The position numbers were made by a program, and so were the translations under genes. This document shows positions 34,345 through 53,022 of a stretch of 64,000 nt of DNA, in pieces. Within the stretch, counting starts at the first letter, position 1, and every line of letters begins with the position of its first letter. A model generated the notes under the pieces. It was given only the letters and a program-made list of their open reading frames with translations. It was not told the DNA's origin and searched no databases. The stretch comes from Deinococcales bacterium (GTDB lineage Bacteria > Deinococcota > Deinococci > Deinococcales > JAAFIG01). The DNA lies in the NCBI GenBank assembly GCA_025359505.1, contig JANYHH010000077.1, positions 64,784-128,783 of the forward strand. The letters run 5' to 3'.

Positions 34345-35037
34345 ACTGCTCCCCCGAAAAATCTGCAAATTCACTGCTCGAGCGGTCAATTCCGAGCAGT
34401 GGTCAGGGATGGCGTTGTGGCCGCTGGAGACGGTTTGACCTCGAGTACAGGCGCGGGTGAACTCCGTAAGATTTCCGAAAAAAGTTCCTGAGGTATTTTC
34501 TGCTCGTTTTCAGCGTCGAGCGATGAGTCGAGGTTAGTTCTCGAGCGCGTAACACAAGCAGTTGCCCATTTTTCGTATGCCCATGCGTGGAGTGCCGACC
34601 GTATTCGCCTGCATAAAAAAGCTGTAAATCTCGAGCGTAGCGAGCACGGCTTTTACAGTTCTCGAATGACCCGCAGCCGATCCCATGAACGTGAAATCAG
34701 CAATACGATAACAGGGACTGGTTTTGCACGTCGCGGCGCAGTAACCGCTCGTGCAGCTCGAGCCGCGATGCGCTGGCGCGGCAGCACCACCTCGCGCAAC
34801 CCGTTTGAGCGTCAGCGGCTCGAGTACCTGAGGCGATTATCTGTCAAGCACGGGCTGGGCGAGATACCGCCGAAAAACCATTTCACTGTCTTGTCATGAT
34901 GGCGCGGCTCGAGACCCAGCGCATTGCGTTGACAAGTCGTTGATCTGAATCAGCGTGTCTGCTTTGTGGAATCCTCGGCCATCGACAAAAACGCCGACTG
35001 CGGTAGGAAATTAGCGGTTGCCCTCGAGCGTCCCGCG

Positions 35038-37512
35038 TTACTTACCGGCCACGACGTTGATGCGTATCACCGTGTTCTCCTTGACGGACCCATCATCGTA
35101 AGGCACGGTGCGGTCGTAAGTTTTCTCGAACAGCACTTTGCTCGAGGCGCGGCTGCTGGTGCTCAGCACGAGTCCTACCTGCGGCGCACCGCCACCGGAC
35201 AGCAACTGCCCGCGCTCGGAAGTGTGAATACCAATGAAATCCCCGAACCAGCCGGGCGCGGTGACCCTGCGTCCGCACATCGGGCCGCCAGTCAGTTCGT
35301 AGGTTTCTTGTGGCGGCGCACCACCGCCACCGCTGGGGAAACCGGGGTTGAGCAGCATGTTCAGCGCATCCGACGTATCGTCATCGGCGCTGAGGTTGAC
35401 CTCCATCATGCCCGTGATGACATCGGTGATTTTTACAGTGCAGTCCTTAGACCCCCCGGTGATGCTGCGCTCCAAGTAGCTCAACCTGCCTGAGCCACCC
35501 ATGCTCGTCAAGCGCTCCAAATCCCCACTGCCGGAGAACTTGGCGGTTAACGCAAATTGCGCGCCCAGTTTGAAGTGCAGCTTCCCGCCACTTTTATCAA
35601 CGACATCAATGGTCGAAGTGAATTCCAGCTCGAGCTTTGGCGGAGCGAAGAAAATCACTGTCAAGAGTTCATCGGCGATGCCGGTTTTGTTGCCGCTGCG
35701 AACACCGGCTTCGATGGTGGACCACTTTTTGGGCATCAGGTTGCTGACGTCAACGCCGATGTTGCCGGTTTTAGCGTTTTCCTGCACCCGCAGCGCCTTC
35801 GGGATACGCTCAAACTTCGCATCGAACTTGGCCTTGGCAGTGCCCTGCGCGTCGGTGGTGTTCTGCACCAGTTTGAACTCCTCGTCCAGCGCGTATGGCA
35901 GCAGCGTGTTCGGCATGGTCCACTTCACGGCCTTACCCGCCGCATCGCCGGGATACGGGACTTCGCAACCGATTTTCTCCAATAACTGCGCGGCCGTGCC
36001 AATGTTGCCCGTCAAGCGCGTTCCGAAAACTTTGCTGCGGTAATCGTCCATGAAGCTGACGTGCACCGACAGCGAACTCGAGTACGGTTTGGAGCTGTCG
36101 CCTCGAGTGCGACGGTAGATCGTGGTTGGTGAGCGAGTCAGTTGAATCTGGTAGCCGTACAGAATCACCGAGGCGCAAAACGCGGCGCTGGCGTTTTCTT
36201 TTAAGGCCTGCACGATGGCGTCCTTAAGCGATTTGGGATCCACGCCTTCGGGGATTGGGAACGGAATCCCTAAATACTCCTGAATCGCGTCGTCAATCTG
36301 CGGGGTGATCTCACCCTTCACCTCATCTACAGCCTTGTCCGCGACTTTCTCGAAGAACCAGCGCAGCGGTTTAGGGGCATCGCCTTGTGCGCTGGCGCTC
36401 CAAATTGCGCCGTGCGAGGTTCCAACCCGCTCGAGTGAGGATAAGAGCGGCTCGAGGACGAAACGGCTGAGCGTCATCAGCGGCGCAGGGCTGGGCAGTG
36501 CTGCACTTAGCCGCAGTTGCGGGCTGGGCGGGCCCGCCTCGAAGAGCGCGGTCAGCAACCTAAACTGCATCGGATCGAGGGTTTTCTCGCCCCAGAACGC
36601 ATCGATATTCGCGCCGTCCCGTGAGCGCAACCCGCGCCGCAGGCGCTCGCGCCCGAGCGCCCCAACAAACGAGATGAGCGCCTGCGAGTACGTGAAATGC
36701 GGCTGCGCGAAGAAACCGCCAATCATCGCGGTGAAACTGAGCGCATCGAACGCCCCACCGGCTCGAGGCTTCAAACCGCTCTGCGACTCAGATTTCAGGA
36801 ACGATTCCAGTGATATGAACGAGCCTTTGTCGTAGCCCGCTCGCATCGCGGGGAATTCTAGGGTGAGCGCGAACGGGCGGTGCGCGAAGAGCCGCAGGCC
36901 AATTTGGTCGGTGTCGGCAATGCGGGCGTCGCCGTAAACGGGAATTTGAAAGCCCTCCAGCACGGCATTCAGCAACGGAGCAAAATCCTTTCCAGAAGTC
37001 ACGGCGTCGTAGAACTCCTTCGCGGCCCGCTCCAAATCTGCGCCCTCGAGACCGCTCGGCGCGAACCGGGTTGCTGCGGCTGGCGGCGCTGTGGGAGGGG
37101 CGCTATTGAGGGCGGGCGCGGCGCTAACACTGAGCGTCAACTCAGTGTCAGCGCCTGTGACCGTGCCCTGCAGTCCAAGTGCGGAGAGCGCCTCGAGCGC
37201 CGCGACGTAAATCGTGTTGCTGTTCGTCGTTGGGTCTTTGTGCAGCACGAAACTGACCGTGGCGGTCTTGCTGCCATCGCCGGAGGTGATCGTCACGAGC
37301 GCCTGCGTCTGATCGACCTTGACAGGCCGAGCGCCGCCCCCAATGGCTTGAAAGAACGGCAGCGCCGAAACCCAGAGCCTGCCGCCATCTGTGAAGCCGT
37401 CAACGCTGCCACTGCGGTTGTTTACAATGAGTTTCACGGGTTCGGCATGGGCAGTTGAACCCACGGCCACCCAAGTCAGCAGCGCGGCGAGGCAGACCAG
37501 CAATCGTTTCAT
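35038..37512 (-). CDS. large secreted orphan protein with N-terminal copper-amine-oxidase-N-like (stalk) module
   Basis: GGAGG RBS before ATG 37512 and signal peptide LTWVAVGSTAHA. The N-terminal roughly 100 aa resemble modules in three other operon members. The rest has no recognised domain. Confidence 0.6.
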   Translation of the reverse strand: MKRLLVCLAALLTWVAVGSTAHAEPVKLIVNNRSGSVDGFTDGGRLWVSALPFFQAIGGGARPVKVDQTQALVTITSGDGSKTATVSFVLHKDPTTNSNTIYVAALEALSALGLQGTVTGADTELTLSVSAAPALNSAPPTAPPAAATRFAPSGLEGADLERAAKEFYDAVTSGKDFAPLLNAVLEGFQIPVYGDARIADTDQIGLRLFAHRPFALTLEFPAMRAGYDKGSFISLESFLKSESQSGLKPRAGGAFDALSFTAMIGGFFAQPHFTYSQALISFVGALGRERLRRGLRSRDGANIDAFWGEKTLDPMQFRLLTALFEAGPPSPQLRLSAALPSPAPLMTLSRFVLEPLLSSLERVGTSHGAIWSASAQGDAPKPLRWFFEKVADKAVDEVKGEITPQIDDAIQEYLGIPFPIPEGVDPKSLKDAIVQALKENASAAFCASVILYGYQIQLTRSPTTIYRRTRGDSSKPYSSSLSVHVSFMDDYRSKVFGTRLTGNIGTAAQLLEKIGCEVPYPGDAAGKAVKWTMPNTLLPYALDEEFKLVQNTTDAQGTAKAKFDAKFERIPKALRVQENAKTGNIGVDVSNLMPKKWSTIEAGVRSGNKTGIADELLTVIFFAPPKLELEFTSTIDVVDKSGGKLHFKLGAQFALTAKFSGSGDLERLTSMGGSGRLSYLERSITGGSKDCTVKITDVITGMMEVNLSADDDTSDALNMLLNPGFPSGGGGAPPQETYELTGGPMCGRRVTAPGWFGDFIGIHTSERGQLLSGGGAPQVGLVLSTSSRASSKVLFEKTYDRTVPYDDGSVKENTVIRINVVAGK

Positions 37513-37565
37513 GAAGCCTCCAGTTTCAGTCAGACTGTACCTCTCAGGTCTCACTGATACCGTCA

Positions 37566-38879
37566 TCACGGAACCGTCAGCAGCAAAATCGTGCTCACTC
37601 CGGTCGGGCAGCCGTCGGCATTCACGTCCACCGTGTACGTGCCTGACGAAACGCCTGAGCCGACCGCCAGATTCAGCAGGCTCGAGTTACCAACTGTACT
37701 GTTGGGCGCGAACGAACCCGAGACCGTGCCGCTCGAGGCTGCGCCAACTGGGGCGGGCCCGGCGCTGCCAACGGTCGAGCTACCGGAGATGCTCAAGTTC
37801 AGGGCGGCCGCGCAATTCGCGCCGCGCTCGAACTCGAGGGCGACTGTCTGGCTCGCGCCTTTGGCGATGGAAACCGGGTTTGGAACGCCCTGCGTTGAAA
37901 AAAGAATGTTCAGACCATCCGGATTAAGCGTCGCGGTGCTCAGAAAAATGCCCTCCGCACCGTAGCTGAGGTTCGCGCCAAATCTGGTTCTGACGCGCAC
38001 GTCGTAACTCGTGCTTGGGTTTGCGGGGACGGTTGCCGTCGTCGCTGTCGTGTCAATCGCTGGGCCGTACTGACCAACGCCGTTCCCCAGATCCAGTCCG
38101 GCGGAGCGTATTTGCAGGCTGTAACCCGTGGCCTCGGGGACGGCGTCCCATTTTAGCAGCAGCTTCTTGGCGGTGTCAGACCTGACTTGCGCGATATTGG
38201 CGGTTTCTGGTAGCACGAGAAAGAATTTCTGGTCGCTCGAGACCGCGCCCGAAGTGAAGGTTTCGACGATGGGCGTGGTGGCGCTTAAATCGTGCCCGGC
38301 GAGGCTGATGTTGAGGATGTTCCAGCCCTGAACGAAGGACACGTTGTCGTAGGTGTAGGTGTATTTCGGCGTTCCCGTCGTGGTGGTGCAGGAGCCGCTC
38401 AGGATCGTATTTTTCGTTACAAAAATGCGGTACGTGCCATTGCTACCGGGGTCGAACGCCGAGCTGCTAGATTCGACAGCGTTCGCCTGATACACGTCGC
38501 TTCCCGAGTTGGGTTTCGTCGTGAGCAGCGCGAAGACGGCCTTGCCATCGCTCGGGGTCGCGGTGATGCTCCCGCCGCTGCACGATCCCAGCAGGTTGCC
38601 GCCACCGTTCAGCTCCGCATCGGTCGGCGTGGGCAACACGAGGTTACTGAACGAGCCATCCGCCGCAACGGTTACACCCACGCTTGTCGATGGGGTGCTC
38701 GAGAAAACCTGCGCGTAGAGGGTTGCGGTTTTCCCCGGAATCCAATTCGAGATCGTGCCGAAGACAGGCGAACCGTTCGCCACTGGGGACTGCGGAGGCG
38801 CGACCGTTCCGCTCGAGTTGCAAGCGACCAACAACGAGACGAAGCCGGGAACAACGAGTAAAATCTGCCAACGTTTCAT
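37566..38879 (-). CDS. lipoprotein with Fn3/Ig-like domains
   Basis: Lipobox LLVAC. KLLLKWDAVPEATGYSLQIRS is an Fn3-like segment. The protein is Thr/Ser/Gly-rich and beta-rich. Confidence 0.6.
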   Translation of the reverse strand: MKRWQILLVVPGFVSLLVACNSSGTVAPPQSPVANGSPVFGTISNWIPGKTATLYAQVFSSTPSTSVGVTVAADGSFSNLVLPTPTDAELNGGGNLLGSCSGGSITATPSDGKAVFALLTTKPNSGSDVYQANAVESSSSAFDPGSNGTYRIFVTKNTILSGSCTTTTGTPKYTYTYDNVSFVQGWNILNISLAGHDLSATTPIVETFTSGAVSSDQKFFLVLPETANIAQVRSDTAKKLLLKWDAVPEATGYSLQIRSAGLDLGNGVGQYGPAIDTTATTATVPANPSTSYDVRVRTRFGANLSYGAEGIFLSTATLNPDGLNILFSTQGVPNPVSIAKGASQTVALEFERGANCAAALNLSISGSSTVGSAGPAPVGAASSGTVSGSFAPNSTVGNSSLLNLAVGSGVSSGTYTVDVNADGCPTGVSTILLLTVP

Positions 38880-38951
38880 AAATCACTCCTTGACCGCCCT
38901 TGGGAAGCTCGAGCGGCGGTATTGCGTGTGGTGCGACCCGAGTCAGCGCTG

Positions 38952-39068
38952 GCTCGAGCAGGTGAGGGCAAAAAGATTCGGTCGTCTCGAGCTGGGAAAA
39001 AGCCGATCACTGCCACGCGGCGGTCAACGCAATGTGCTTCAAAATCCGCTCGAGCACAGGTGAGGGCA
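38952..39068. promoter_or_regulatory. two direct repeats GCTCGAGCA(CA)GGTGAGGGCA, 96 nt apart, in an internal operon gap
   Basis: Copies at 38952-38970 and 39048-39068. They lie 73-190 nt upstream of the 38879 start codon on the minus strand. Confidence 0.35.
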
Positions 39069-39177
39069 CATCAGCATTGGCCCGCATGGTGCAGCGTTGC
39101 GACCCTCGAGCCATCGTGGTGTAGAACTTTTGCGAGTATCACGCGGTATGCGAGCCGGGCGATGTTGTCCTCGAGCA

Positions 39178-40122
39178 TCACTTGGCTGGAATCGGCGCGA
39201 TGTTGCCGATGAAATCCACAGACTCAGCATTTGGGACTTTCAGGGTGATCGGTTTCTCGCTGGTTTTAGTGGCGATCAGGCGCACGCTGGACTGCCCGCC
39301 CGCCACGACTGCCGCGATGATCCCTCGACCGTCCGGCGTCCACGCAGCGGTTGGCCTGACGAAATTGCTCGAGTCGGTTTTGAGATCGCTCAGGGCGCGG
39401 TCGCTCGTGCCATCTGGTTTAACGGTGTGCAGCACGCCTTTGTAGAGGTCACTGGCGTTGGTGCGTAAGAAAACAATAGCTTTGCCGTCGGGCGACCACG
39501 CGGGCCACGCATCGCCCGTCAATGTCCCGGCAATTTGCTTGGCATTGCCGCCGCTCGCGTCCATGATCCACAATCCACCAGCGGCGAAATTGGCGTTGTG
39601 AAACACGATCTGACCCGTCACGGGATTGACGTTTGGCGCGTCGTCAAAGCAGTTGGCATCGCGCAAAGTAGTTACGCTCGAGCCTTCTAGGGTCACGCGC
39701 CCGAGGCTGCACTGCTCATCGAAAATCAGCGCTTGGCTATCAATCGTCCAACCGGCGGAGACCATGTAATCGCTGCCGTTCATCACGTTCTGTTCGCTGG
39801 ATGTCTCGAGGTTTCGCACAAACAGGTGGTCGCCCTTGCCAGATGGATATTCGCCGTCGCGCTGGAACGAAAACGCTTTCCCGTTTGGCGCGAGATGCGG
39901 ATTCCAGCCGATCGCCACGACTTGATTTGAACTGCCATCGAGTTTCAGTAGATGCACGAAATGCGAGCCGTCGGCTGGATCAGTGCTGCTGTACACCAGT
40001 TGGCTCGAGGCGATGGAGTCGATTGGCGTGGTCGGCGTGCTGGCGGGATCGCCAGTGACGACGACGATGCAGCCGGAGAGCGCAACCGCCAGCGCGGGAA
40101 TCAGCAGGAGTTTGGTTTTCAT
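39178..40122 (-). CDS. TolB-like beta-propeller lipoprotein (PD40 repeats)
   Basis: Lipobox ALSGC. Repeated W-x-P-D/N-G-K/R motifs: WNPHLAPNGKAFSF, WSPDGKAIVF, WTPDGRGII. Confidence 0.75.
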   Translation of the reverse strand: MKTKLLLIPALAVALSGCIVVVTGDPASTPTTPIDSIASSQLVYSSTDPADGSHFVHLLKLDGSSNQVVAIGWNPHLAPNGKAFSFQRDGEYPSGKGDHLFVRNLETSSEQNVMNGSDYMVSAGWTIDSQALIFDEQCSLGRVTLEGSSVTTLRDANCFDDAPNVNPVTGQIVFHNANFAAGGLWIMDASGGNAKQIAGTLTGDAWPAWSPDGKAIVFLRTNASDLYKGVLHTVKPDGTSDRALSDLKTDSSNFVRPTAAWTPDGRGIIAAVVAGGQSSVRLIATKTSEKPITLKVPNAESVDFIGNIAPIPAK

Positions 40123-40180
40123 GGGTGTGTCCTTTCAAAACTCGAGGGATCTCAGGTGAAATGCAAAAGTGATGCGGGCG

Positions 40181-41041
40181 CTACGGCTGCCCAATCAGTT
40201 CGTAACTGAGCGTCGCACCGAAGTACTGGCTCGAGGCGGACAGGTGTTGACTCGAGGCGGTGGTCAGTCCCAAGCCGTCTGCGGTGGGATCGCTGTGCAG
40301 CAGTAGTTGCAAGCCACCCGCGCCATCAGTACCGTCTGGGCAGACGATGCCGTCAATCGCCAATGCGTAGCGGCTGGGCGAAGTGAAATTGATGATGCCC
40401 GCGAACGGCGTCTGCGCGGTGATGTCTGAACCGATCAGGTATTTGGTTTGCGTACACGCGACATTGAACGGCGCTGGGATGACATCGAGCGTGACCGCGC
40501 CACTGACCGTGCGGTACGAACCTTGACCGCCTTCTTTGAAGACGACTTGCCCGTGACCCTCGAAGCCAGCTTTATTTTGAAACTTGAAGCTGCCCGAATA
40601 CGATTTCATAGCGCGGCTCGAGCGAGGCACAGGCGGAGTGGCGGGCGGCGGGGTCGGCTCGACGTTCTGGGCTGCGGCGGGTGCAGTGCTGGGTAAATCG
40701 GCAATCGTCACCGAATTGCTCGAGGCTCGCAGGATCACGAAACCCAGTCCAGTCACCAGATCGCTCAAACTCGCGTACAGCTTGCCCTTTAAGCCGGTCA
40801 ACGCCAGCCGCACGCTGCGGCTGCGGTGCGCGAACAGAGCTTTCTTGCCACCGGATTCCACGGTGACTTTGCTGGCGCTGCCAGCGGCAAAGCCTTGCAC
40901 CTCGAGCATCAGTTGGTTGTTCACGGACGCACCCAGCACGGACTTTGAAGCGCCAGCGTAGTTCAGGGTGAACGGCGTTTGAGCGCTGGCCATAGTCAGC
41001 AATGTAATAGCGACCATCAACAACCAGATCGTAGGTTTCAT
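40181..41041 (-). CDS. secreted orphan protein with N-terminal stalk-like module
   Basis: Signal peptide LLTMASAQ, shared N-module, Pro-rich linker PTPPPATPPVP, and an unrecognised C-domain. Confidence 0.55.
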   Translation of the reverse strand: MKPTIWLLMVAITLLTMASAQTPFTLNYAGASKSVLGASVNNQLMLEVQGFAAGSASKVTVESGGKKALFAHRSRSVRLALTGLKGKLYASLSDLVTGLGFVILRASSNSVTIADLPSTAPAAAQNVEPTPPPATPPVPRSSRAMKSYSGSFKFQNKAGFEGHGQVVFKEGGQGSYRTVSGAVTLDVIPAPFNVACTQTKYLIGSDITAQTPFAGIINFTSPSRYALAIDGIVCPDGTDGAGGLQLLLHSDPTADGLGLTTASSQHLSASSQYFGATLSYELIGQP

Positions 41042-41126
41042 GCAGCCTCCTCGAGCGCTATGGGCGAGATTTGACTAACTCGAGGGTCTAGCTCGAGCGG
41101 GATTGAACGGTGCGGGATTCGAGTCT

Positions 41127-42110
41127 TTACTTGATTGGCTCGAGTTTCAGGCGCGTGTCTTGGATCAGGGTCGCCTTGCCAATTTTTAGCGGCGCGTTGT
41201 TACCGACGCTGTACTCAACGGTAGCGCTTGGGGTGAGTTCCGGCAAACCGTTCAACAACAGCGCCGGACGCGGCGAGTCTTGGGATACGATCACCACGCC
41301 GAGGTTGCCCTTGACCGAATTGGTGAACGCCGAGTACCAGCCCTGCAACCCAAGTGCGCGTGGACACTGCACGGTTTCGCTCGGGGCGAGTCCGCGACCG
41401 CCCGGCAGGCCGGGGTCAAATGCGATCACGCGCAGCTTGCCGCCCTTTGGGAGCGTCGTCTCCAGCAGCATCAGGTACGCAAAGCCATTGCGTCCGACGA
41501 TGGGGCACTTTGGCGGACTGAGGGTGACGCTCTCGTAACTCAAGTCCAGCCTGCCCTCCGCGAGAATCGTGAACGGCGCACCCACGGGCAGGTCACTGCC
41601 TTGCAGGTACGTCTCCCCCGCTCGAGCCTCGCTCAACACCGCGTGACCCTCGAGCCGGTACGTGTAGTACGTGTAGCCGCTCCCACCGTCTTTGAGAGAC
41701 ATCGTGGAGGTGAAGGTCGCGTTGTACCCGATGCCGGGCGGCGCGGTCGGGTTCGCCGGGGCGCAGTTGCCCGCGTCACCGGTCACGGTCAGGGTCGTGC
41801 CGCTAGCGCTGACCTGAAACCCGAGTGCTCGAGCGCTCAGCACGCCGTCCATGAACGGCGTGGCGTCGCGCACCTCGAAGGCTAAGTCCGTGGTCTTGCC
41901 GCAGAGCTTGACCGATGCCTTGTTCGGGGACAGTCGCACCACACTCGCGCCGAGGGCGGGCAGGAAGGTTCGGGCAGAAACAAAAATCGTGTTGCCTGCC
42001 GCGAATCCGGGCATCGTACTGGCTGTGCCGTTCACGACAACCGCCACCGAACCCGCCGCCAGTCCCAGCCCGAGCGCCAGCGCCAGCGCCGCGCCAAGCA
42101 TTGATTTCAC
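41127..42110 (-). CDS. secreted orphan protein with N-terminal stalk-like module
   Basis: GTG 42110 overlaps the upstream stop (GTGA). Signal-like ALALALGLGLAAG. The N-module is VVVNGTASTMPGF...FLPALGASV. The 497-aa ORF's N-terminal 169 aa were rejected as Arg-rich and overlapping the upstream gene. Confidence 0.55.
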   Translation of the reverse strand: MKSMLGAALALALGLGLAAGSVAVVVNGTASTMPGFAAGNTIFVSARTFLPALGASVVRLSPNKASVKLCGKTTDLAFEVRDATPFMDGVLSARALGFQVSASGTTLTVTGDAGNCAPANPTAPPGIGYNATFTSTMSLKDGGSGYTYYTYRLEGHAVLSEARAGETYLQGSDLPVGAPFTILAEGRLDLSYESVTLSPPKCPIVGRNGFAYLMLLETTLPKGGKLRVIAFDPGLPGGRGLAPSETVQCPRALGLQGWYSAFTNSVKGNLGVVIVSQDSPRPALLLNGLPELTPSATVEYSVGNNAPLKIGKATLIQDTRLKLEPIK

Positions 42111-42541
42111 TTGAACCTCGCGCTCGAGGCGATCTGACGCAGCGACTGCTCCAAGGGAGCGGTGTTTTTCAGGTCGGTGTTGGAGCGCACGATGCAGCCC
42201 CGTGCGCCTTGAAAGATCGCCTCGTAGTATTCCCGCGTGGCGAAGGCCGCCAGTTCCTCGGTGATTGTGATTCGGTAAAGCACGTGGTGCGCGTCTTGCT
42301 CCAAGGTTTGCTTTTTGAAACTGGCGGTGGCCGTCGTGATGTCCGCTGGCGTGTACGCGCCGCTGATCGCACTGGCTCGAGCGTGACCGCCCGGTTGCAC
42401 GGCGAACGTACCGCTCTTTTTCCAGTTTTGCGGAAACGTAAAAGCGCAAACGCCGCGCTTGTCGGTCATGGTTTGCGAGTCGTTTGGAGCCGCGAGTGCG
42501 AGGCTCGAGATCAGTACGAAGGGCAAAAGTTTCAGCTTCAC
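42107..42541 (-). CDS. small secreted orphan protein
   Basis: 144 aa with signal peptide FVLISSLALAAP. No known domain. Confidence 0.5.
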   Translation of the reverse strand: MKLKLLPFVLISSLALAAPNDSQTMTDKRGVCAFTFPQNWKKSGTFAVQPGGHARASAISGAYTPADITTATASFKKQTLEQDAHHVLYRITITEELAAFATREYYEAIFQGARGCIVRSNTDLKNTAPLEQSLRQIASSARFK

Positions 42542-42673
42542 AGGGATCTCCTGACCGAGTTGCCAACGAAGTCCATCCAGTCGGCATGGGCAAGGTTGAG
42601 GGTGATGATCTCGCTCGCACTGCTCGTGAGCGCAGGGCGAAGGCTCGAGAGTAGAGCAGGCAATCCAGCGCGG

Positions 42674-43984
42674 TCAGTTCAGGTTGCTGATGTCCAACTC
42701 GGCTGTTCTCGAGCCTTGCCAGACCAACCTGACCTTCTTGGGTTGCACGCCGCTGGGGACATCAATCAGCGCCCGCACCTGCACTTCTTGATTGTACTGC
42801 AAATCAATCGACTCGAGGTTCGCGTCGCGGCTTGCGCGGTAGATCCAGTCCGATTTGCGGCTCTCAATGCGGTCTTGGTCGATGAAGGAAATTGCACCGT
42901 AACCGCCGTAAATGCCCGTGGGTGCTTTGGCGATGTTCTTGACGGTGAAATACAGCACCAGCCAGCGTCCACCCTCGGGCGGGGCTGAACCGTCGAACCA
43001 TGGCTCGGTGGAGTAGATCACCTTGTCGAGCCTAAAATTGGTGACCGCCGGGTAGTAAACGCCGATCTGCGCTGGAAATACTGTCAGGGCACTCGAGCCG
43101 TCGGTCACAGTCGGGTCAGCGAACGGCGTAGGCAGCGGCGCGATTTTGCCGCGCAAGTCGTAGCGCCAGACCGCGTTGTTGCTGTCGTCCACGATCAACT
43201 TGGGCAAGCTGACATCGCCGTCCACGACGATGCGCGTGAAAACAACGACCTTCTGCGCGGGTTTGAGGCTGAGGCTGACGGGTCGCAGTGTGCCCTGTTC
43301 GTACCAGTAACCGTCACCAGACACGTTGCTGTTCTTACTGTCCACGCCGGTAAACCGAATGCTCGAGCCGTCGACAGAGCGTTCGGTCTTGTTGGGGTTC
43401 TGGATCGTCAGCGAGATCACCAGCGCTTTTTTGTCGGGCGCGACGATGTAATCGTTTTTGCTCGGGCTGTCGTAGAGGTAATTGCCGACGCTCCACTCGA
43501 GCTTGGTGATGGAATAGTTCAGTGCGCCTTCGCCGCGAAACAGCGTGTAGGTCTGACCCAGCACGCCCTCGCCGCCGCTCAGTTGACTCGCGCCCTGAAC
43601 GCTCGGGGCCGTCATTGGCATCGCTGGCGTGGGGTTGGTGATCGTCACCGTCGTTCCAGCGAGGCTCGAGGCCAGCCCGAGACCTTTGACGACCACCGCG
43701 ACACTTGCGTAGGCGATGTCTTTTTGGATCGTCACCGCGACCTTGGCGGTCTTGGCGTTGCGCGTGAAAGTCGCGGCTTTACCGGCGAAGTCGAGGCTGA
43801 CGCTCGCGCCGAGCGCGGCCGCCAAGGGCTTGCTCGAGAGTGCGAGCTTGCCAGTGACGGTGATGCCTGCCACGCTGCTGCTTTTACTACCGAAGACGAC
43901 TTTGTACGTGCCTTGCGCGAGCGCGATGGCCGCCGCGAGCGTGAGGGCGAAAACAAGTGTACCGCCGAGTTTTTTCGCGTTCAT
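42674..43984 (-). CDS. secreted protein: stalk-like N-module plus two DUF4352-like beta-sandwich regions
   Basis: Signal peptide ALTLAAAIALAQG. N-module ITVTGKLALSSKPLAAALGASVSL. Then KKALVISLTIQNPNKTERSV and RWLVLYFTVKNIAKAP, which resemble the DUF4352 core strand. Confidence 0.55.
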   Translation of the reverse strand: MNAKKLGGTLVFALTLAAAIALAQGTYKVVFGSKSSSVAGITVTGKLALSSKPLAAALGASVSLDFAGKAATFTRNAKTAKVAVTIQKDIAYASVAVVVKGLGLASSLAGTTVTITNPTPAMPMTAPSVQGASQLSGGEGVLGQTYTLFRGEGALNYSITKLEWSVGNYLYDSPSKNDYIVAPDKKALVISLTIQNPNKTERSVDGSSIRFTGVDSKNSNVSGDGYWYEQGTLRPVSLSLKPAQKVVVFTRIVVDGDVSLPKLIVDDSNNAVWRYDLRGKIAPLPTPFADPTVTDGSSALTVFPAQIGVYYPAVTNFRLDKVIYSTEPWFDGSAPPEGGRWLVLYFTVKNIAKAPTGIYGGYGAISFIDQDRIESRKSDWIYRASRDANLESIDLQYNQEVQVRALIDVPSGVQPKKVRLVWQGSRTAELDISNLN

Positions 43985-44196
43985 TGCTGCTCCTTTTGAT
44001 TTGCTTTGAGTGACTGACTGAGGCGTTGTTTTTCATGCCCAATTTCAGTCTCGAGGTGTTTGACGAGTTCCGAGATTCGACTGAAGCCGCGTATCTGTTT
44101 GGTGTCGACGTTTGTGACGGTCGCCCGCCACGCGTTGACGCCGCCCTCCTCGAGCCAAGCGCGAATCACGAGGTTTTTGGCTTTGCCAATATTCAT
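43981..44196 (-). CDS. small (71 aa) conserved-looking hypothetical protein at head of operon
   Basis: AGGAGG RBS. LVIRAWLEEGGVNAWRATVTNVDTKQIRGFSRISELVKHLE resembles a widespread small-protein pattern of unknown function. ATGA overlap with the next gene. Confidence 0.45.
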   Translation of the reverse strand: MNIGKAKNLVIRAWLEEGGVNAWRATVTNVDTKQIRGFSRISELVKHLETEIGHEKQRLSQSLKANQKEQQ

Positions 44197-44220
44197 GGGC
44201 TGGGTTGACCTCCTGAGCTG

Positions 44221-44241
44221 TGAACGCTGAGCACGCGTTCA
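44221..44241 (-). other. hairpin between regulator stop and small-ORF RBS
   Basis: TGAACGC-tgagcac-GCGTTCA forms a 7-bp stem immediately upstream (minus strand) of the AGGAGG RBS. Confidence 0.35.
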
Positions 44242-44285
44242 GCGGTGCTTGGAGATCACGCTAAGGGTGCAGCGTTAATTGAGCG

Positions 44286-46244
44286 TCAATTGGTTGAAGA
44301 CCCCAGCAGCTCGAGTACCGCAGCGCGGGTCAGGTCGAGCGGCTCGAGGGTCTCGAGCAAGGCGTGGGCTTTGTCCCGCTGCGCTGCCGCCTCGATTGCC
44401 AAGTCGTTTGGCGCGTGATGGACGGCGATCGCCAGTGCGCTGATCTCCAAGCCGCCCATGCCGAGTTCAGCGGCCGCAGCGGCGACCATGAGCGCCAAGC
44501 GGTAGCCGCCCGGCGAGGCGCTCTTTGTCGCCCGCAACAGGTGCGCTCGCAGCAGGTACGATCCCGGGCCGCTTTGCTCCAGTGAACGCTCGGCTTGGGT
44601 CAGCGTCGCGTCCCAATCCGCGCCGCGCTGAGCGCAGATTCGGGCGCTCAGCAGTTGCGCGAAGCCGACGCCCTTGGCGTGAACGCCCGCGCTGGCAAGC
44701 GCCCGCTCGAGGTCGCGCTCAGCGTCGTCGGGGCGGTTGAGCAGCAGGTACACCTGAGCGCGGCGATAAAAAACGAAACTGCACGGCAGATTGTTCGTCA
44801 CGCTCAGGCTCTCAGCCCGTGCCAGCCACTCGAGGGCTTCTTCAAAGCGCCCAAGCTGAGTCAGCACCTCGGCGCGATTGGCGTAACCGTAGCGTTCGTC
44901 ATCGACGAGTCCCGGCAACTGGCTCAGCAGCCGCGCAGCGATCTCGAGCGGCTCGAGGGCGGCTTGGGCGCGGCCCTGATGTTTATAGGTCATGGCGAGG
45001 TTGTTGAGCAGCGTGATGCGTTGCCGCCACGCGCCAAACAGTTCCAGCAGCGCGTCTGCTTCCAGATACGCGGCTTCGGCCTCACTGTAACGGTCAGAGT
45101 TGGCCAGCGACAGCGCGTACTCCGCCAGCGCGACGGCCGCCTCGAGCGAGTGGTGCGGCAGGGATTGCACGGCCCGCTGCTGCCACCCGAGCGCCTCGGA
45201 CGTGCGGTCAAGCCGCAGCAGTGCGGCCGCGATTTCAGCCTCGAGCTGCGAGCGCAAACCCGCATCGCCCGTCAGCTCCAATCCGCGCTCGGCGTGCCTT
45301 TGGGTTTCCGCGAACTGTCCACGCTGGTAATGCAACCACGCGCTAGCCAGCGCGGTTTTGGCGTGCTGCTCAGGCGTCTGCGCTCGGCTGGATAAGTCAA
45401 CAATCAGCCGCTCCAATGCGTCGGTGGCTTCGATTTCAGACAGCACCGCGCTGGCGGCCAGCAGCGTATCGAAGGCGGTCTCCGTGCGCCCGAGCGAATC
45501 CAGCACGCGGGTCGCCTCGAGCAGCGCGGCCACTTCGCGGTTGGAGTCGGATGAGCGTTGCGGCAAGCTGGCGGGCACGTGACCAACGCTCGGTAGGCGC
45601 ACGCCGCGAGCGACCAGCAAGGCGAGGCGCTGCGTTTCCAAGCTCGGCTCGAGGTTCAGTTCTCTTCTGAGCACGTCGCGGCAGGCTTCAAAGGCTCGTA
45701 CGGCCGCGGCGCGATCACCGAGCGCTTCGTGCAGGCGCATCACGCGGCGGTGATTGGCTTCGCTCAACGCCTCCAGCGCCACGAGTTGCTTGGCATAATG
45801 AAGCGCCGCGCCGTAGTCGTGCGCGGTTTCAAAAGCCGCACAGCGCTTGGCGTACCCCTCGAGTTGCCTGAGGGCTAAACGTTGGCGTTCGGTGAACAGC
45901 CAATCGTCAAAGGTTGGGCAGTCATCGTAGCTGAAGTTTCCAAGCAGCTCACCAGCGCCAGCTCCTGACTCATTGGACAAATGCAAATCAACCCGCACGT
46001 CAGCCGCAAGGCAAAGCTGATCATGGCCGACCAACAAACCCTTGGGGAGCTTAAAAACCACTTGCCGCAGGCTGTTGCGGGCCGCGCTTGCATCCGACCA
46101 CAGCCACGACGCCAGTTTAGCGCGGGCCTGCTGCCCCTCGAGCGCCAGCAATGCCAGCACAGCGGCCGTTTTACGATCCAGCAACGTGCGTTGCTGACCA
46201 TCGTACAGCGACGGCTGACCCCGCAGTTGCAGCTCGAGCGGCAC
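44286..46244 (-). CDS. SARP/AfsR-like regulator: winged-helix plus BTAD domain plus TPR repeats
   Basis: The N-terminus (LELQLRGQPSLYDG...RKTAAVLALLALEG...LASWLW) is OmpR/SARP-like. The BTAD segment is ALHYAKQLVALEALSEANHRRVMRLHEALGDRAAAVRAFEACRDVLRRELNLEPSLETQ. A long TPR-like helical region follows. Confidence 0.8.
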   Translation of the reverse strand: MPLELQLRGQPSLYDGQQRTLLDRKTAAVLALLALEGQQARAKLASWLWSDASAARNSLRQVVFKLPKGLLVGHDQLCLAADVRVDLHLSNESGAGAGELLGNFSYDDCPTFDDWLFTERQRLALRQLEGYAKRCAAFETAHDYGAALHYAKQLVALEALSEANHRRVMRLHEALGDRAAAVRAFEACRDVLRRELNLEPSLETQRLALLVARGVRLPSVGHVPASLPQRSSDSNREVAALLEATRVLDSLGRTETAFDTLLAASAVLSEIEATDALERLIVDLSSRAQTPEQHAKTALASAWLHYQRGQFAETQRHAERGLELTGDAGLRSQLEAEIAAALLRLDRTSEALGWQQRAVQSLPHHSLEAAVALAEYALSLANSDRYSEAEAAYLEADALLELFGAWRQRITLLNNLAMTYKHQGRAQAALEPLEIAARLLSQLPGLVDDERYGYANRAEVLTQLGRFEEALEWLARAESLSVTNNLPCSFVFYRRAQVYLLLNRPDDAERDLERALASAGVHAKGVGFAQLLSARICAQRGADWDATLTQAERSLEQSGPGSYLLRAHLLRATKSASPGGYRLALMVAAAAAELGMGGLEISALAIAVHHAPNDLAIEAAAQRDKAHALLETLEPLDLTRAAVLELLGSSTN

Positions 46245-46492
46245 GGGTTTCAGTCTACGTTGCCCCGCAGTGCTGACGCGGTGGAATTCAAACAGATTCG
46301 TGCTGGACTGGCTTTCAGGGTGACAGATTCAGGCGGTGGTCGGTGGCACAAACGATTGGCTGTCGCGTGTCAAGGGATTTTGACCATCAAAAGCATGACT
46401 CGTCTCGTAAGCTCACCAAAGGTTCATTTCACCTTCACCGCAACCCACAACTCTTGCTCAGCTCTTTCGCACACAAACCACGAAGGGAATCC

Positions 46493-47683
46493 ATGCTGAA
46501 CAACGCTTACTCCGTGGCCATCACGGCTCCACCCGCCGGCGACCTCACTCCATTCGTCGATGCACTGGCGCAAACACTGAACGCCCAAAACCCGCAAATC
46601 GTGCAGTTGCTCGAGCGCTTGCAGGCCGGGCCCGTGACCGTCACCAAACCGATTCCGGAGGACGCAGCGCGGCAGCTCGCGCAGCAACTCGAGCGGCTTG
46701 GCTTCAAAACGCAGGTGCGCGTCAGCGCCCAGCCAGCGCCGTCCACCAGCCAAGCACTGCCCCTCAGCAGCGATCTCGTCGCGCCGCCCGCGCCGCCAGC
46801 CCGCAAGCGCTCGAGCCTCAGCAACCGCATTTTGCTCAGCACATTGATCCCGCTGTTGGTGCTGATCGCGGCGATCCTCGGGTTCACCGCACTGAGCTTG
46901 CCGAGCACGGTCAGGCAACTGATTCTCGAGGGCGCGGATCAACTGGCCATCGCGGTTGGCAACTCAATCGAACTGAACAATCCGGGGGGTGAGAACCGCC
47001 GCTTGACGTTGCTGACCCAACAACCCAAGGTCTTTTTCGTGGCGGTCAAACTGCCCGATGGCTCAGCGCTGTTTCGCGCCAAAAACGCCGATGACGAGAT
47101 CATCGTTCGCACGCCACTGACTGAATTCATGGACGCCAATCCAGCGGGCGGCACGTACTCGTGGACGGACAACCGCGCTGCCGCCTTTGCGACGGTCATC
47201 AAGCAGATGCAGTCCTCAGGGCAAGCGACGGACGCATCTGTCAAATCAGTGCAGCAAAACGTTGATCGCACCGTGTCGTCGGCTGGGCAAGTGACGATTC
47301 TCGAGGTCAGGCGCATTGGCTTTAAAGAAATTGGCGGCGTGCGCCAAGTCGTGCCGATCAATCAAGCGGACTTCGTGGTCAGCGTTGGCGTGATCGCCAA
47401 TGACAGCTTGAGTATTCGCAATAACTTCCTACTGATCTTCGGTGTGGTCGCGCTGCTGGCGACCGTCGTGATCGTTGCCATCACCTCGGCCGCACTGCGC
47501 CGCGTGGTGCAACCGATTTTGGAGATGTCAAAAATCGCGGATCGCATCAGCATGGGTGAAATTGATCAACCCGTACCGAACTTTGGCAACGACGAATTGG
47601 GTGATCTGTCTCAGTCGATTGATCGCCTGCGAATCAGCGTCAAGGTGCTGTTAGAAAGGATGGTCAGCAAACGCAATTCTTAG
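46493..47683 (+). CDS. membrane sensor ending in a HAMP domain, with no output domain
   Basis: Soluble N-domain, TM1 (ILLSTLIPLLVLIAAILGF), a roughly 200-aa extracytoplasmic region, TM2, HAMP (RRVVQPILEMSKIADRISMGEIDQPVP...DELGDLSQSIDRLRISV), then the stop codon. Confidence 0.7.
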   Translation: MLNNAYSVAITAPPAGDLTPFVDALAQTLNAQNPQIVQLLERLQAGPVTVTKPIPEDAARQLAQQLERLGFKTQVRVSAQPAPSTSQALPLSSDLVAPPAPPARKRSSLSNRILLSTLIPLLVLIAAILGFTALSLPSTVRQLILEGADQLAIAVGNSIELNNPGGENRRLTLLTQQPKVFFVAVKLPDGSALFRAKNADDEIIVRTPLTEFMDANPAGGTYSWTDNRAAAFATVIKQMQSSGQATDASVKSVQQNVDRTVSSAGQVTILEVRRIGFKEIGGVRQVVPINQADFVVSVGVIANDSLSIRNNFLLIFGVVALLATVVIVAITSAALRRVVQPILEMSKIADRISMGEIDQPVPNFGNDELGDLSQSIDRLRISVKVLLERMVSKRNS

Positions 47684-52047: not shown

Positions 52048-53022
52048 ATGAAGAAACGCATTGCACTGGCGGTACTCGGCGCGGGCTTGGCAGTTGGAGT
52101 GGCGTCGATGGTGAACGCGCAAAAAGCCATGCCAGAAGTCAGCATCATCCTCAACTGGTTCGCCGAGCCACCGCACGGCGGCTACTACGCGGCCGTGCAA
52201 GACGGTCTGTACGAGAAAGCGGGCGTTAAGGTCAAGCTGATTCCCGGCGGGCCAAATGTCGCGGGGTACAGCCTCGTATCGACCGGCAAAGCCGAATTCG
52301 CGCAGATGGACACGGCCGGCATTCTGCAATCACGCGAGCAGGGCCTGCCCGTGGTCGGCGTCTTCGCCGATCTGCAACTCTCGCCGCAAGTGCTGATGTT
52401 CCATAAATCCAACCCCGTCAAAGGCTTCGCGGATCTAGCCGGACGCCAAGTCGCCGTCACACCGGGCGCTCCGTACTGGGATTACATCGTCGCTAAGTAC
52501 AAACTCGAAGGCAAAGCCCAGCAAGTCAATTACACGGGTCAGGTCGCCACGTTCCTCAACGACAAAAAGCTCGTCAGTCAAGGCTACGCAGTCGCGGAAC
52601 CGTACACCATCGAACAGGCCGGCGGCGACATCGATTATCTACTGGTCAGCGATTCGGGGTTCAGCCCTTACGGAGTCTTGGGCACGAACGAGGATTTCTT
52701 AAAAAATAACCGCGCCGTCGTAAAAGCCGTGGTTGAAGCCAGTCAAGAAGGCTGGAACCGCTACGTCGCCAACCCCGCCAAATACGGCGACGCGATCAAA
52801 GCCGACAACAAAGATTTGACGCCGGGTTTCCTCGCATGGAGCGGCAAAGCCGTCGTGCCATTCGCCACCGGCAAAGATGGGCAAGTCAAAAAATACGGTT
52901 TCGGCACGATGCAACTCAGCCGCTGGAACGAGATTTACAAGGCGCTGAAAGCCGTCGGGATCTTAAAGAAGGATCAAGTCGTGCAGCAGGCCTTCAACAC
53001 GACCTTCATCAAAAAGCCATAA
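52048..53022 (+). CDS. ABC transporter substrate-binding protein (NMT1/THI5-like, SsuA/ThiY type)
   Basis: Signal peptide. ILNWFAEPPHGGYYAAVQDGLYEKAGVKVKLIPGGP matches the NMT1/THI5-like pattern. Confidence 0.85.
   Translation: MKKRIALAVLGAGLAVGVASMVNAQKAMPEVSIILNWFAEPPHGGYYAAVQDGLYEKAGVKVKLIPGGPNVAGYSLVSTGKAEFAQMDTAGILQSREQGLPVVGVFADLQLSPQVLMFHKSNPVKGFADLAGRQVAVTPGAPYWDYIVAKYKLEGKAQQVNYTGQVATFLNDKKLVSQGYAVAEPYTIEQAGGDIDYLLVSDSGFSPYGVLGTNEDFLKNNRAVVKAVVEASQEGWNRYVANPAKYGDAIKADNKDLTPGFLAWSGKAVVPFATGKDGQVKKYGFGTMQLSRWNEIYKALKAVGILKKDQVVQQAFNTTFIKKP

Follow-up and report, generated by a model that had tools for sequence, protein, structure and literature searches.

A lineage-restricted cluster of exported-protein genes behind a BTAD-TPR regulator in a Deinococcales bacterium

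Positions 35038 to 46244 of a 64,000-nucleotide (nt) stretch of Deinococcales bacterium DNA (assembly GCA_025359505.1, contig JANYHH010000077.1, positions 64,784 to 128,783 of the forward strand; hereafter the window) hold nine minus-strand open reading frames (ORFs), in which a regulator with BTAD and TPR domains precedes a small protein and a series of secreted proteins and lipoproteins. This arrangement raises the question of whether the genes form a functional unit, and what such a unit would do in the cell envelope. The locus was first described by a reading of the letters alone (the sequence-only reading) as an orphan eight-gene operon behind a SARP-like regulator, and all nine ORFs were found at the coordinates claimed there. 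In our analysis, four of the genes, encoding the regulator, the small protein, the 436-residue type and the 824-residue type of exported protein, make up the constant core of the complete clusters, and this core stays together in at least five other lineages, which supports a functionally linked unit. The cluster is genuine and restricted to Deinococcus-like bacteria. We hold it to be about evenly balanced whether it is a self-contained, one-lineage cluster whose exported envelope proteins are turned on by a SARP-type activator.

The cluster and its conserved core

The cluster comprises, in the order of transcription:

44286-46244, minus strand: 652-residue regulator; BTAD at residues 113-208, C-terminal TPR array, putative SARP-like DNA-binding N-terminus
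43981-44196, minus strand: 71-residue small cytoplasmic protein without signal peptide
42674-43984, minus strand: exported 436-residue protein; signal peptide, Cu-amine-oxidase-N1-like N-domain, DUF4352-like beta-sandwich region
42107-42541, minus strand: exported 144-residue protein; signal peptide; window-specific accessory gene
41127-42110, minus strand: exported 327-residue protein, GTG start; N1-like N-domain and C-terminal two-cysteine beta domain
40181-41041, minus strand: exported 286-residue protein; N1-like N-domain, Pro/Ala/Thr linker, C-terminal domain; window-specific
39178-40122, minus strand: 314-residue PD40 beta-propeller lipoprotein; lipobox LSGC; Pfam PD40 at E 1e-8
37566-38879, minus strand: 437-residue Ig/Fn3-like lipoprotein; lipobox LVAC; fn3 at E 0.076
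35038-37512, minus strand: exported 824-residue protein; signal peptide, N1-like N-domain, linker, helical domain, two beta-rich domains

In all nine ORFs, the 144-residue one included, the GC content of third codon positions was 0.61-0.79 and exceeded that of second positions, which is a coding signature. The upstream extension of the 327-residue frame, which overlaps the 144-residue gene, had the inverse pattern, and for this reason we favour calling the 144-residue gene and starting the 327-residue one at the GTG of 42110. The junctions had been described as tight: the two 4-nt start/stop overlaps (43981-43984 and 42107-42110) do follow from the ORF coordinates; however, the successive gaps of 89, -4, 132, -4, 85, 58, 298 and 53 nt are not tight throughout. 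As had been claimed, a signal peptide or lipobox accompanies each product downstream of the small protein, with hydrophobic N-termini in the seven exported products and none in the 71-residue protein, and the lipoboxes LSGC and LVAC are kept in the orthologues. Scans with Pfam and NCBIfam likewise bore out the absence of catalytic and transport domains from the cluster products, whose matches, besides BTAD, TPR and PD40, were sub-threshold or absent. The label of an envelope system is one that we infer from the export signals and the domain types.

The conservation of the gene neighbourhood was followed from the 824-residue protein, for which homologues were searched among 5.8 billion clustered proteins, yielding four close homologues, and in 185,579 reference genomes, yielding one match, in an uncultured Deinococcales genome. 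The gene orders at other loci (numbered with the prefix L; lengths in residues) were as follows:

L001 and L002: regulator (652), small protein (65), 446-residue protein, PD40 protein fused to a second propeller (710), 820-residue protein
L003: regulator (663), small protein (73), 384-residue protein, 840-residue protein, PD40 protein (322)
L004: regulator (668), small protein (65), 439-residue protein, 826-residue protein, Fn3-type lipoprotein (430)
L009 and L010: regulator (670), small protein (65), 428-residue protein, 832-residue protein, 327-type protein (325), Fn3-type lipoprotein (431)
L014 and L015: regulator (720), small protein (70), 378-residue protein; the contig stops one gene later

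The 65-residue small gene of L009 and L010 was absent from the annotators' calls. Identities to the window proteins ranged from 19% (small protein) up to 66%; the gene order was shuffled, and the flanking genes were different in every lineage (elsewhere MarR/topoisomerase, TetR/hydrolase and shikimate dehydrogenase/GDPD genes). Some lineages lack the PD40 lipoprotein, the Fn3-type lipoprotein or the 327-type protein, which are thus optional, and the 144- and 286-residue proteins occur in the window only. The proposed eight-gene operon thus stands as to a conserved core and falls as a fixed set, with three genes accessory and two window-specific, because only the four core genes are always present. 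Homologues of the 824-residue protein were also found alone, without the regulator, at L005 and L007.

These comparisons bear on whether the genes are hypothetical ones that have nothing in common beyond their adjacency. The 144- and 286-residue proteins without homologues elsewhere (for the 144-residue protein, none in the other loci) and the long gaps of 298 and 132 nt would fit such an explanation; however, it is contradicted by synteny, as at least five lineages keep the core although gene order and flanks have changed, and also by the domains common to several members and the conserved start/stop overlaps, so that we find it scarcely credible.

In comparison to L004, the divergence of the cluster is mosaic: the 436-type and Fn3-type proteins are 60-65% identical, whereas the regulator, the small protein and the 824-type protein are only 19-36% identical. 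In comparison to L003, the pattern is the opposite. This suggests that modules have been swapped between cluster variants. A surface-based anti-phage or exclusion system is another reading, as the cluster is lineage-restricted and mobile within the clade, exchanges modules in a mosaic fashion and consists of surface proteins. We nevertheless consider such a role very unlikely, as nuclease, ATPase and abortive-infection domains are absent, the composition is native, and the only PADLOC match was a marginal one of the small protein to the CARF7 model (E 6.4e-4), the other eight members having none.

The regulator, the small protein and candidate operators

The regulator is the first gene of every complete cluster, with orthologues 36-59% identical. 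The BTAD domain (PF03704) was recognized by Pfam at residues 113-208 (E 1.3e-11, 45.5 bits against a cut-off of 22.1), and is recorded in the orthologues too, and TPR_2, TPR_8, TPR_12, TPR_1 and TPR_10 scored above their cut-offs in the C-terminus. Thus, in the earlier description of a winged-helix/BTAD/TPR regulator, the BTAD and TPR parts are confirmed by Pfam, whereas the winged helix, which no profile matched, is conjectural. Residues 1-90 carry a pattern conserved across the orthologues (LxRKxAAxLALLALEG...R..LA.W.W...R..LRQ..FKL), which in our judgement looks like a SARP DNA-binding region. A Walker A motif was found in none of six regulator orthologues, and NB-ARC or AAA profiles of Pfam and NCBIfam did not match. 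Judged by these features, the regulator is a BTAD-TPR protein and not an AfsR-type STAND protein, because both the ATPase module and Walker A are missing.

The small protein belongs to a family of only 17 clusters in 5.8 billion proteins, and every member that could be placed sits directly 3' of a BTAD gene and is 65-73 residues long. Its stop codon overlaps the start of the 436-type gene (by 4 nt in the window), an overlap that is kept in the window, L001, L003 and L004. The maximal 12-residue hydropathy was at most 0.76 in five small-protein orthologues, as against at least 2.35 in the exported proteins. The family has a conserved central core (vIRxW…WRATVT…F…L…L) and a variable tail, and its profile matched nothing among the sequences of the PDB. 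Upstream of the gene, in its putative 5' leader, we noticed one further element, with an AGGAGG ribosome-binding site after it:

44221-44241, minus strand: 7-bp inverted repeat TGAACGC-N7-GCGTTCA

In the promoters on which SARPs act, direct repeats are spaced by 11 or 22 bp, and the 3' repeat lies 8 bp from the -10 element (PMC10936776). We scanned both strands of the window (128 kb of strand) for TANNNT hexamers preceded, at a gap of 7-9 bp, by pairs of heptamers identical at 6 or more of 7 positions. Only three sites on the two strands had this geometry, and two of them lie in the gaps before the regulator and the small gene:

46266-46283, minus strand: candidate SARP box 1, regulator promoter; CACCGCG-N4-CACTGCG, 8 bp to TAGACT at 46252-46257
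44271-44290, minus strand: candidate SARP box 2, small gene and downstream genes; ATTGACGCT-CA-ATTAACGCT, beginning in the regulator stop codon

The TAGACT of box 1 ends 7 nt ahead of the GTG start of the regulator, as in a leaderless-type promoter, and -10-like hexamers just upstream of the start codon of regulator orthologues also suggest promoters of this type. Box 2, which lies within the 89-nt gap, can be read as TTGACGC-N4-TTAACGC at 8 bp (7-9 by register) from TAGCGT at 44258-44263. Each of the two gaps contains exactly one coding-strand TANNNT, and each of these is accompanied by a heptamer repeat at 11-bp spacing, with a joint chance of about 6e-5. Upstream of the orthologous regulator in L014, CACCGGA-N4-CACCTGG, whose CACC-type core is similar to that of box 1, is followed by TACAAT in the geometry of box 1. 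Control of the cluster by the SARP-like regulator thereby gains support, and it would be exerted via the two candidate boxes. A generic promoter and terminator scan gave results at chance level, and an Rfam search gave no match within the cluster. The third site of SARP geometry in the window (52890-52895, minus strand) consists of TCGTTCC and TCGTGCC 22 bp apart, 7 bp from TATTTT, and it may be due to chance.

The regulator would bind the two direct-repeat boxes 8 bp upstream of the -10 elements, in its own promoter and in front of the small gene, and would there substitute for the -35 contact, as SARPs do; it would probably autoregulate. Its activity would be set by the TPR domain, probably through the small protein, on the model of AfsR and AfsS.

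The AfsR-AfsS pair of Streptomyces is the closest precedent for the regulator and the small protein. AfsR activates afsS, and AfsS, which has no DNA-binding domain, associates with AfsR and strengthens its affinity for promoters (PMC10832544). The likeness lies in a TPR-bearing BTAD activator, a small gene next to it, and direct repeats at 11-bp spacing located 8 bp from the -10 element. The differences are that AfsR has a NOD/NB-ARC domain, whereas the cluster regulator has neither a nucleotide-binding domain nor Walker A; that the regulator has no detectable sequence similarity to solved SARP structures; that no AfsS repeat motifs were noticed in the small protein, no AfsS sequence having been compared; and that the host is Deinococcales-like and not an actinomycete, and the targets are exported proteins and not antibiotic genes.

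Alternatively, the regulator and the small gene could be a signalling pair of the RRNPP kind (Rap-Phr, NprR-NprX, PlcR-PapR), with the exported proteins as its quorum-controlled output. As in these systems, a TPR regulator is immediately followed by a small ORF (65-73 residues) in every locus, and NprR and Rap were among the weak TPR matches of the regulator to solved structures (E 0.1-0.5, not significant). However, the small protein has no export signal and no hydrophobic segment; its N-terminal and central parts form a conserved folded core while the C-terminus, from which a peptide would come, is variable; and the DNA-binding module is of the BTAD type and not an XRE-type helix-turn-helix. 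We therefore give this explanation hardly any weight.

The exported proteins and the 824-residue family

The 436-, 327-, 286- and 824-residue proteins have in common a module of some 90 residues that immediately follows the signal peptide (BLAST E down to 6e-8). Of 15 such N-modules, 10 matched Cu_amine_oxidN1 (PF07833), always below the cut-off (best E 2.4e-4), and the N-domain in the AlphaFold model of the 824-residue protein had a Foldseek match (probability 1.0, E 7e-4) to a phage protein that bears the name copper amine oxidase. A hidden Markov model (HMM) of the module found no further copy in the window or the fetched loci. The 286-residue protein is linked through its N-domain to the 436-residue protein (BLAST 6e-8) and to the HMM (8e-22, the protein itself being in the training alignment). 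For its C-terminus, no link to the two-cysteine domain was obtained. The C-terminus of the 327-residue protein is paralogous to the two-cysteine C-terminal domain of the 824-residue family (hhalign probability 78%, E 1.8e-5), the 715-residue protein of L005 matched the 325-residue protein of L009 (BLAST 2e-8), and the L009 orthologue of the 327-residue protein is 44% identical. Because the N-module and the two-cysteine domain are common to several members, the cluster is built in part from duplicated modules.

The 436-type protein has orthologues in all complete clusters (32-65% identity); the window copy matched DUF4352 (PF11611) at E 2.3e-4 (21.9 bits against a cut-off of 25.9) and Cu_amine_oxidN1 at E 0.011, both sub-threshold, and a precomputed DUF4352 match of its L014 orthologue is likewise described as weak. 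Orthologues of the PD40 lipoprotein occur in L001, where it is fused to a second propeller, and in L003. The description of this protein as TolB-like holds at the level of PD40 repeats only, the TolB models being far from their thresholds (TIGR02800 with 44.5 bits against 343, PRK01029 with 19 against 405). The second, C-terminal propeller in L001 (7751-9883) has VVAW…vyVKRW repeats and faint BNR_4 and Tricorn matches. For the other lipoprotein, with orthologues in L004 (60%) and L009 (64%), the Fn3/Ig-like assignment is weak (E 0.076). Profile searches of the PDB with this lipoprotein and with the 436-type protein gave no match. In L004 (17678-20149, minus strand), an 823-residue lipoprotein with about seven Ig-like repeats has its repeat unit and C-terminal domain in common with the 437-residue lipoprotein, which is therefore a member of a larger paralogous family of surface lipoproteins in this lineage.

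The family of the 824-residue protein is much wider than the cluster. An exhaustive profile search returned 130 cluster representatives, about seven of them of the full-length Deinococcales type, the remaining ones being 450-1000 residues long and matching the query at about 130-320 and 437-625, some to about 770; a word-indexed search repeated with a 67-sequence profile returned the same four homologues only. The members inspected have signal peptides or lipoprotein signals (many of them the latter). We aligned 67 members and scanned them for domains. No Pfam family covers the core, and the accessory domains were Big_1 (8 members), PG_binding_1 (2), PASTA (1), Big_2, Big_5, fn3 and a type IX sorting tail, which indicates a surface or cell-wall location. 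Near-invariant were R290, W307, D309, D313 and Q316, in the motif GRERxRR…DxxWGDxxLDPxQ, as well as two cysteine pairs, T553, G557 and P571.

The profile of the family matched no sequence of the PDB. AlphaFold2 modelling gave a predicted local distance difference test (pLDDT) score of 34 with four sequences and 80 with the 67-sequence alignment. In the model, a Pro/Ala linker joins an N1-like domain (about 24-131) to a helical domain (about 157-453) that contains disordered inserts, and a pair of beta-rich domains follows (about 454-824). Foldseek returned no PDB match with E<0.01; matches to the S-layer protein SbsC and the pilin CfaB were not significant (E 0.03-0.04, TM-score 0.1). In the helical domain, a Glu at a helix end, a beta hairpin and the LDPxQ helix had been considered as a lysozyme or transglycosylase arrangement; this was rejected, as Glu289 is variable and Foldseek showed no lysozyme fold. 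The 'endolysin' matches to PHROG, seen in two members only, are attributed to the PG_binding_1 module, which two members likewise carry.

These features can be read in terms of a secreted enzyme or toxin acting on the peptidoglycan or surface glycan of competitors, or a remodeller of the cell's own wall, with the lipoproteins and smaller proteins in a helping or protective role and production triggered by the regulator. Peptidoglycan-binding modules are fused to the family core in 3 of the 67 members, the near-invariant R290, W307, D309, D313 and Q316 make up a polar patch, the two conserved cysteine pairs suit an extracytoplasmic protein, and a gene for a lysozyme inhibitor (MliC) adjoins the homologue in L007. 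However, no hydrolase or toxin profile matched and no enzyme fold was seen by Foldseek against the PDB, Glu289 is not conserved, the C-terminus is conserved, unlike the polymorphic C-termini of typical toxins, and the MliC adjacency is one case, on the opposite strand. We judge an enzyme or toxin of this kind to be unlikely.

For the self-contained cluster under a SARP-type activator, the sequence features would suggest that the products leave the cytoplasm by Sec, two of them lipid-anchored, and that the predicted N1-like module ties four proteins to the cell wall or to one another. The peptidoglycan-binding modules fused to the family core, and an O-antigen-ligase-like neighbour in one subclade, speak for this reading. 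The protein of about 830 residues would be the working component, with the binding or processing of a cell-wall or surface glycan as its most likely task; this is the weakest step, and a glycan- or peptidoglycan-directed role of the family, although the most likely guess, is a doubtful one.

Several observations weigh against this reading as a whole. In the regulator, Trans_reg_C of Pfam was not matched at E<=1, and its profile reached only TPR proteins in the PDB and not the solved AfsR, EmbR or SARP structures. The two candidate boxes differ in sequence (CACYGCG vs TTRACGC), and a comparable box was not found in L001, L003, L004 and L012. On the supporting side, the spacing from regulator to small gene is 15-47 nt in the other loci, which implies one transcript, and 15-24 nt in these four, which makes a single transcript from the regulator promoter likely there. 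The 298- and 132-nt gaps could house independent promoters of the distal genes. With the exception of one subclade, no recurrent partner gene of the wider 824-residue family was found in 34 metagenome loci, and the role of the family need not depend on the cluster. Finally, the Glu289 of GRERxRR is replaced in 13 of 67 members, which argues against a simple Glu-based hydrolase.

In the exceptional subclade (L034, L038 and L039), an O-antigen-ligase-like membrane protein (Wzy_C) is encoded directly downstream of the family member. The Wzy_C copy of L034 has a weak TPR match as well, and in L038 an upstream neighbour, encoded on the other strand, carries an eCIS_core domain together with a weak YkuD match.

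Known systems, flanking genes and the CTCGAG palindrome

The orphan status of the cluster was upheld: with Pfam, NCBIfam, PADLOC and Foldseek, no member could be assigned to an S-layer, a pilus, a polysaccharide-utilisation apparatus, the Tol-Pal system or a defence system, and no SLH, S-layer, pilin, usher or SusC/SusD-type domain was matched in any member by Pfam or NCBIfam at E<=1. The claim of a linked orphan unit came through the refutation tests that the sequence-only reading had set for it. In the 314-residue lipoprotein, the likeness to TolB is that of an envelope PD40-repeat beta-propeller, but the protein is lipid-anchored, it lacks the N-terminal domain of TolB, and tolQRA and pal are not nearby. 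The exported proteins resemble the Cu_amine_oxidN1 proteins of Firmicutes in having a signal peptide, an N1-like module, a linker, a variable C-terminus and several paralogues, and they differ from these in that the matches of the cluster fall below the Pfam cut-off. A SARP-type regulator over a purely extracytoplasmic protein set had been called unusual; however, control of envelope genes by such a regulator is not unprecedented. The mycobacterial EmbR (winged helix, BTAD and FHA) controls the arabinan-synthesis genes embCAB, and is thus similarly a SARP-like regulator over cell-envelope genes, but it senses by its FHA domain and kinase signalling, whereas here a TPR array and a small partner are found, and the targets are other ones. 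A literature search on BTAD in Deinococcus, the N1 domain and CTCGAG abundance gave nothing useful.

In comparison to these systems, the new features are the obligatory small partner, the lack of an ATPase, the exported cargo and the non-actinomycete host, together with two undescribed families; the regulator is of a known kind. Taken to its full extent, the proposal would be that of a previously undescribed envelope apparatus, in which a BTAD-TPR activator works with a new class of small partner (made in fixed ratio with an exported protein via the gene overlap), an N1-like module targets proteins to the cell wall, and the effector of about 830 residues comes from a widespread undescribed family with a fold not in the solved structures. 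As a joint claim, this is tentative, and we would expect some part of it to fail. SARP-type activators have been studied almost only as switches of antibiotic genes in actinomycetes, and here promoters of that design seem to drive an operon of exported envelope proteins in a Deinococcus-like lineage. A regulator without ATPase but with an obligatory small partner offers a simpler model for the control of TPR-bearing SARPs, and two unannotated families are defined, the BTAD-tied small protein and an extracytoplasmic one with about 130 representatives. For the present the impact is modest, since most of the hosts have not been cultured; conserved clusters of uncharacterised genes are, moreover, a common find.

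The genes surrounding the cluster are unrelated to it. Downstream, on the plus strand, lie a ROK regulator, a sugar ABC transporter and a GH3 enzyme, and upstream, divergently, a protein ending in HAMP and a Bmp-family binding protein. The exported proteins might thus be a nutrient-capture set, akin to polysaccharide-utilisation loci and working with the GH3 enzyme and the sugar ABC transporter just downstream on the other strand, all the more as beta-sandwich and propeller proteins are of a substrate-binding kind. However, the other loci all have different flanks, none of the cluster versions includes a SusC/SusD, TonB-dependent or transporter gene, and the GH3 gene is convergent to the cluster, so that we consider nutrient capture improbable. 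The gene divergent from the regulator (46343-47683, plus strand) encodes a 446-residue protein with a C-terminal HAMP domain and no output domain, an arrangement that recurs in the near-identical contig L016 and not in other lineages. Two non-coding stretches are unusually long, 34345-35037 (693 nt) and 38880-39177 (298 nt), with 8 and 6 copies of CTCGAG, respectively; the sole ORF of the former, of 77 residues, has no family match, and neither stretch matched Rfam.

The palindrome CTCGAG occurs 416 times in the 64 kb, where 24 copies are expected (about 17-fold), evenly across coding and non-coding DNA. Its density was said to be native-like in the cluster, and it is so, with 5.8 per kb as against 6.5 per kb in the window. 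Every locus with a complete cluster (L001-L004, L009, L010 and L012-L015 were counted) has an excess of 5.2-8.4 per kb over a GC range of 49-65%. The palindrome thus looks like a lineage-wide hyper-abundant one, comparable in kind to the cyanobacterial HIP1. At the loci of stand-alone homologues of the 824-residue protein, the count is zero in L005 (22 kb), L007 (10 kb) and L008 (5.5 kb), which suggests that the site is avoided in these relatives, the opposite of its state in the lineage of the window.

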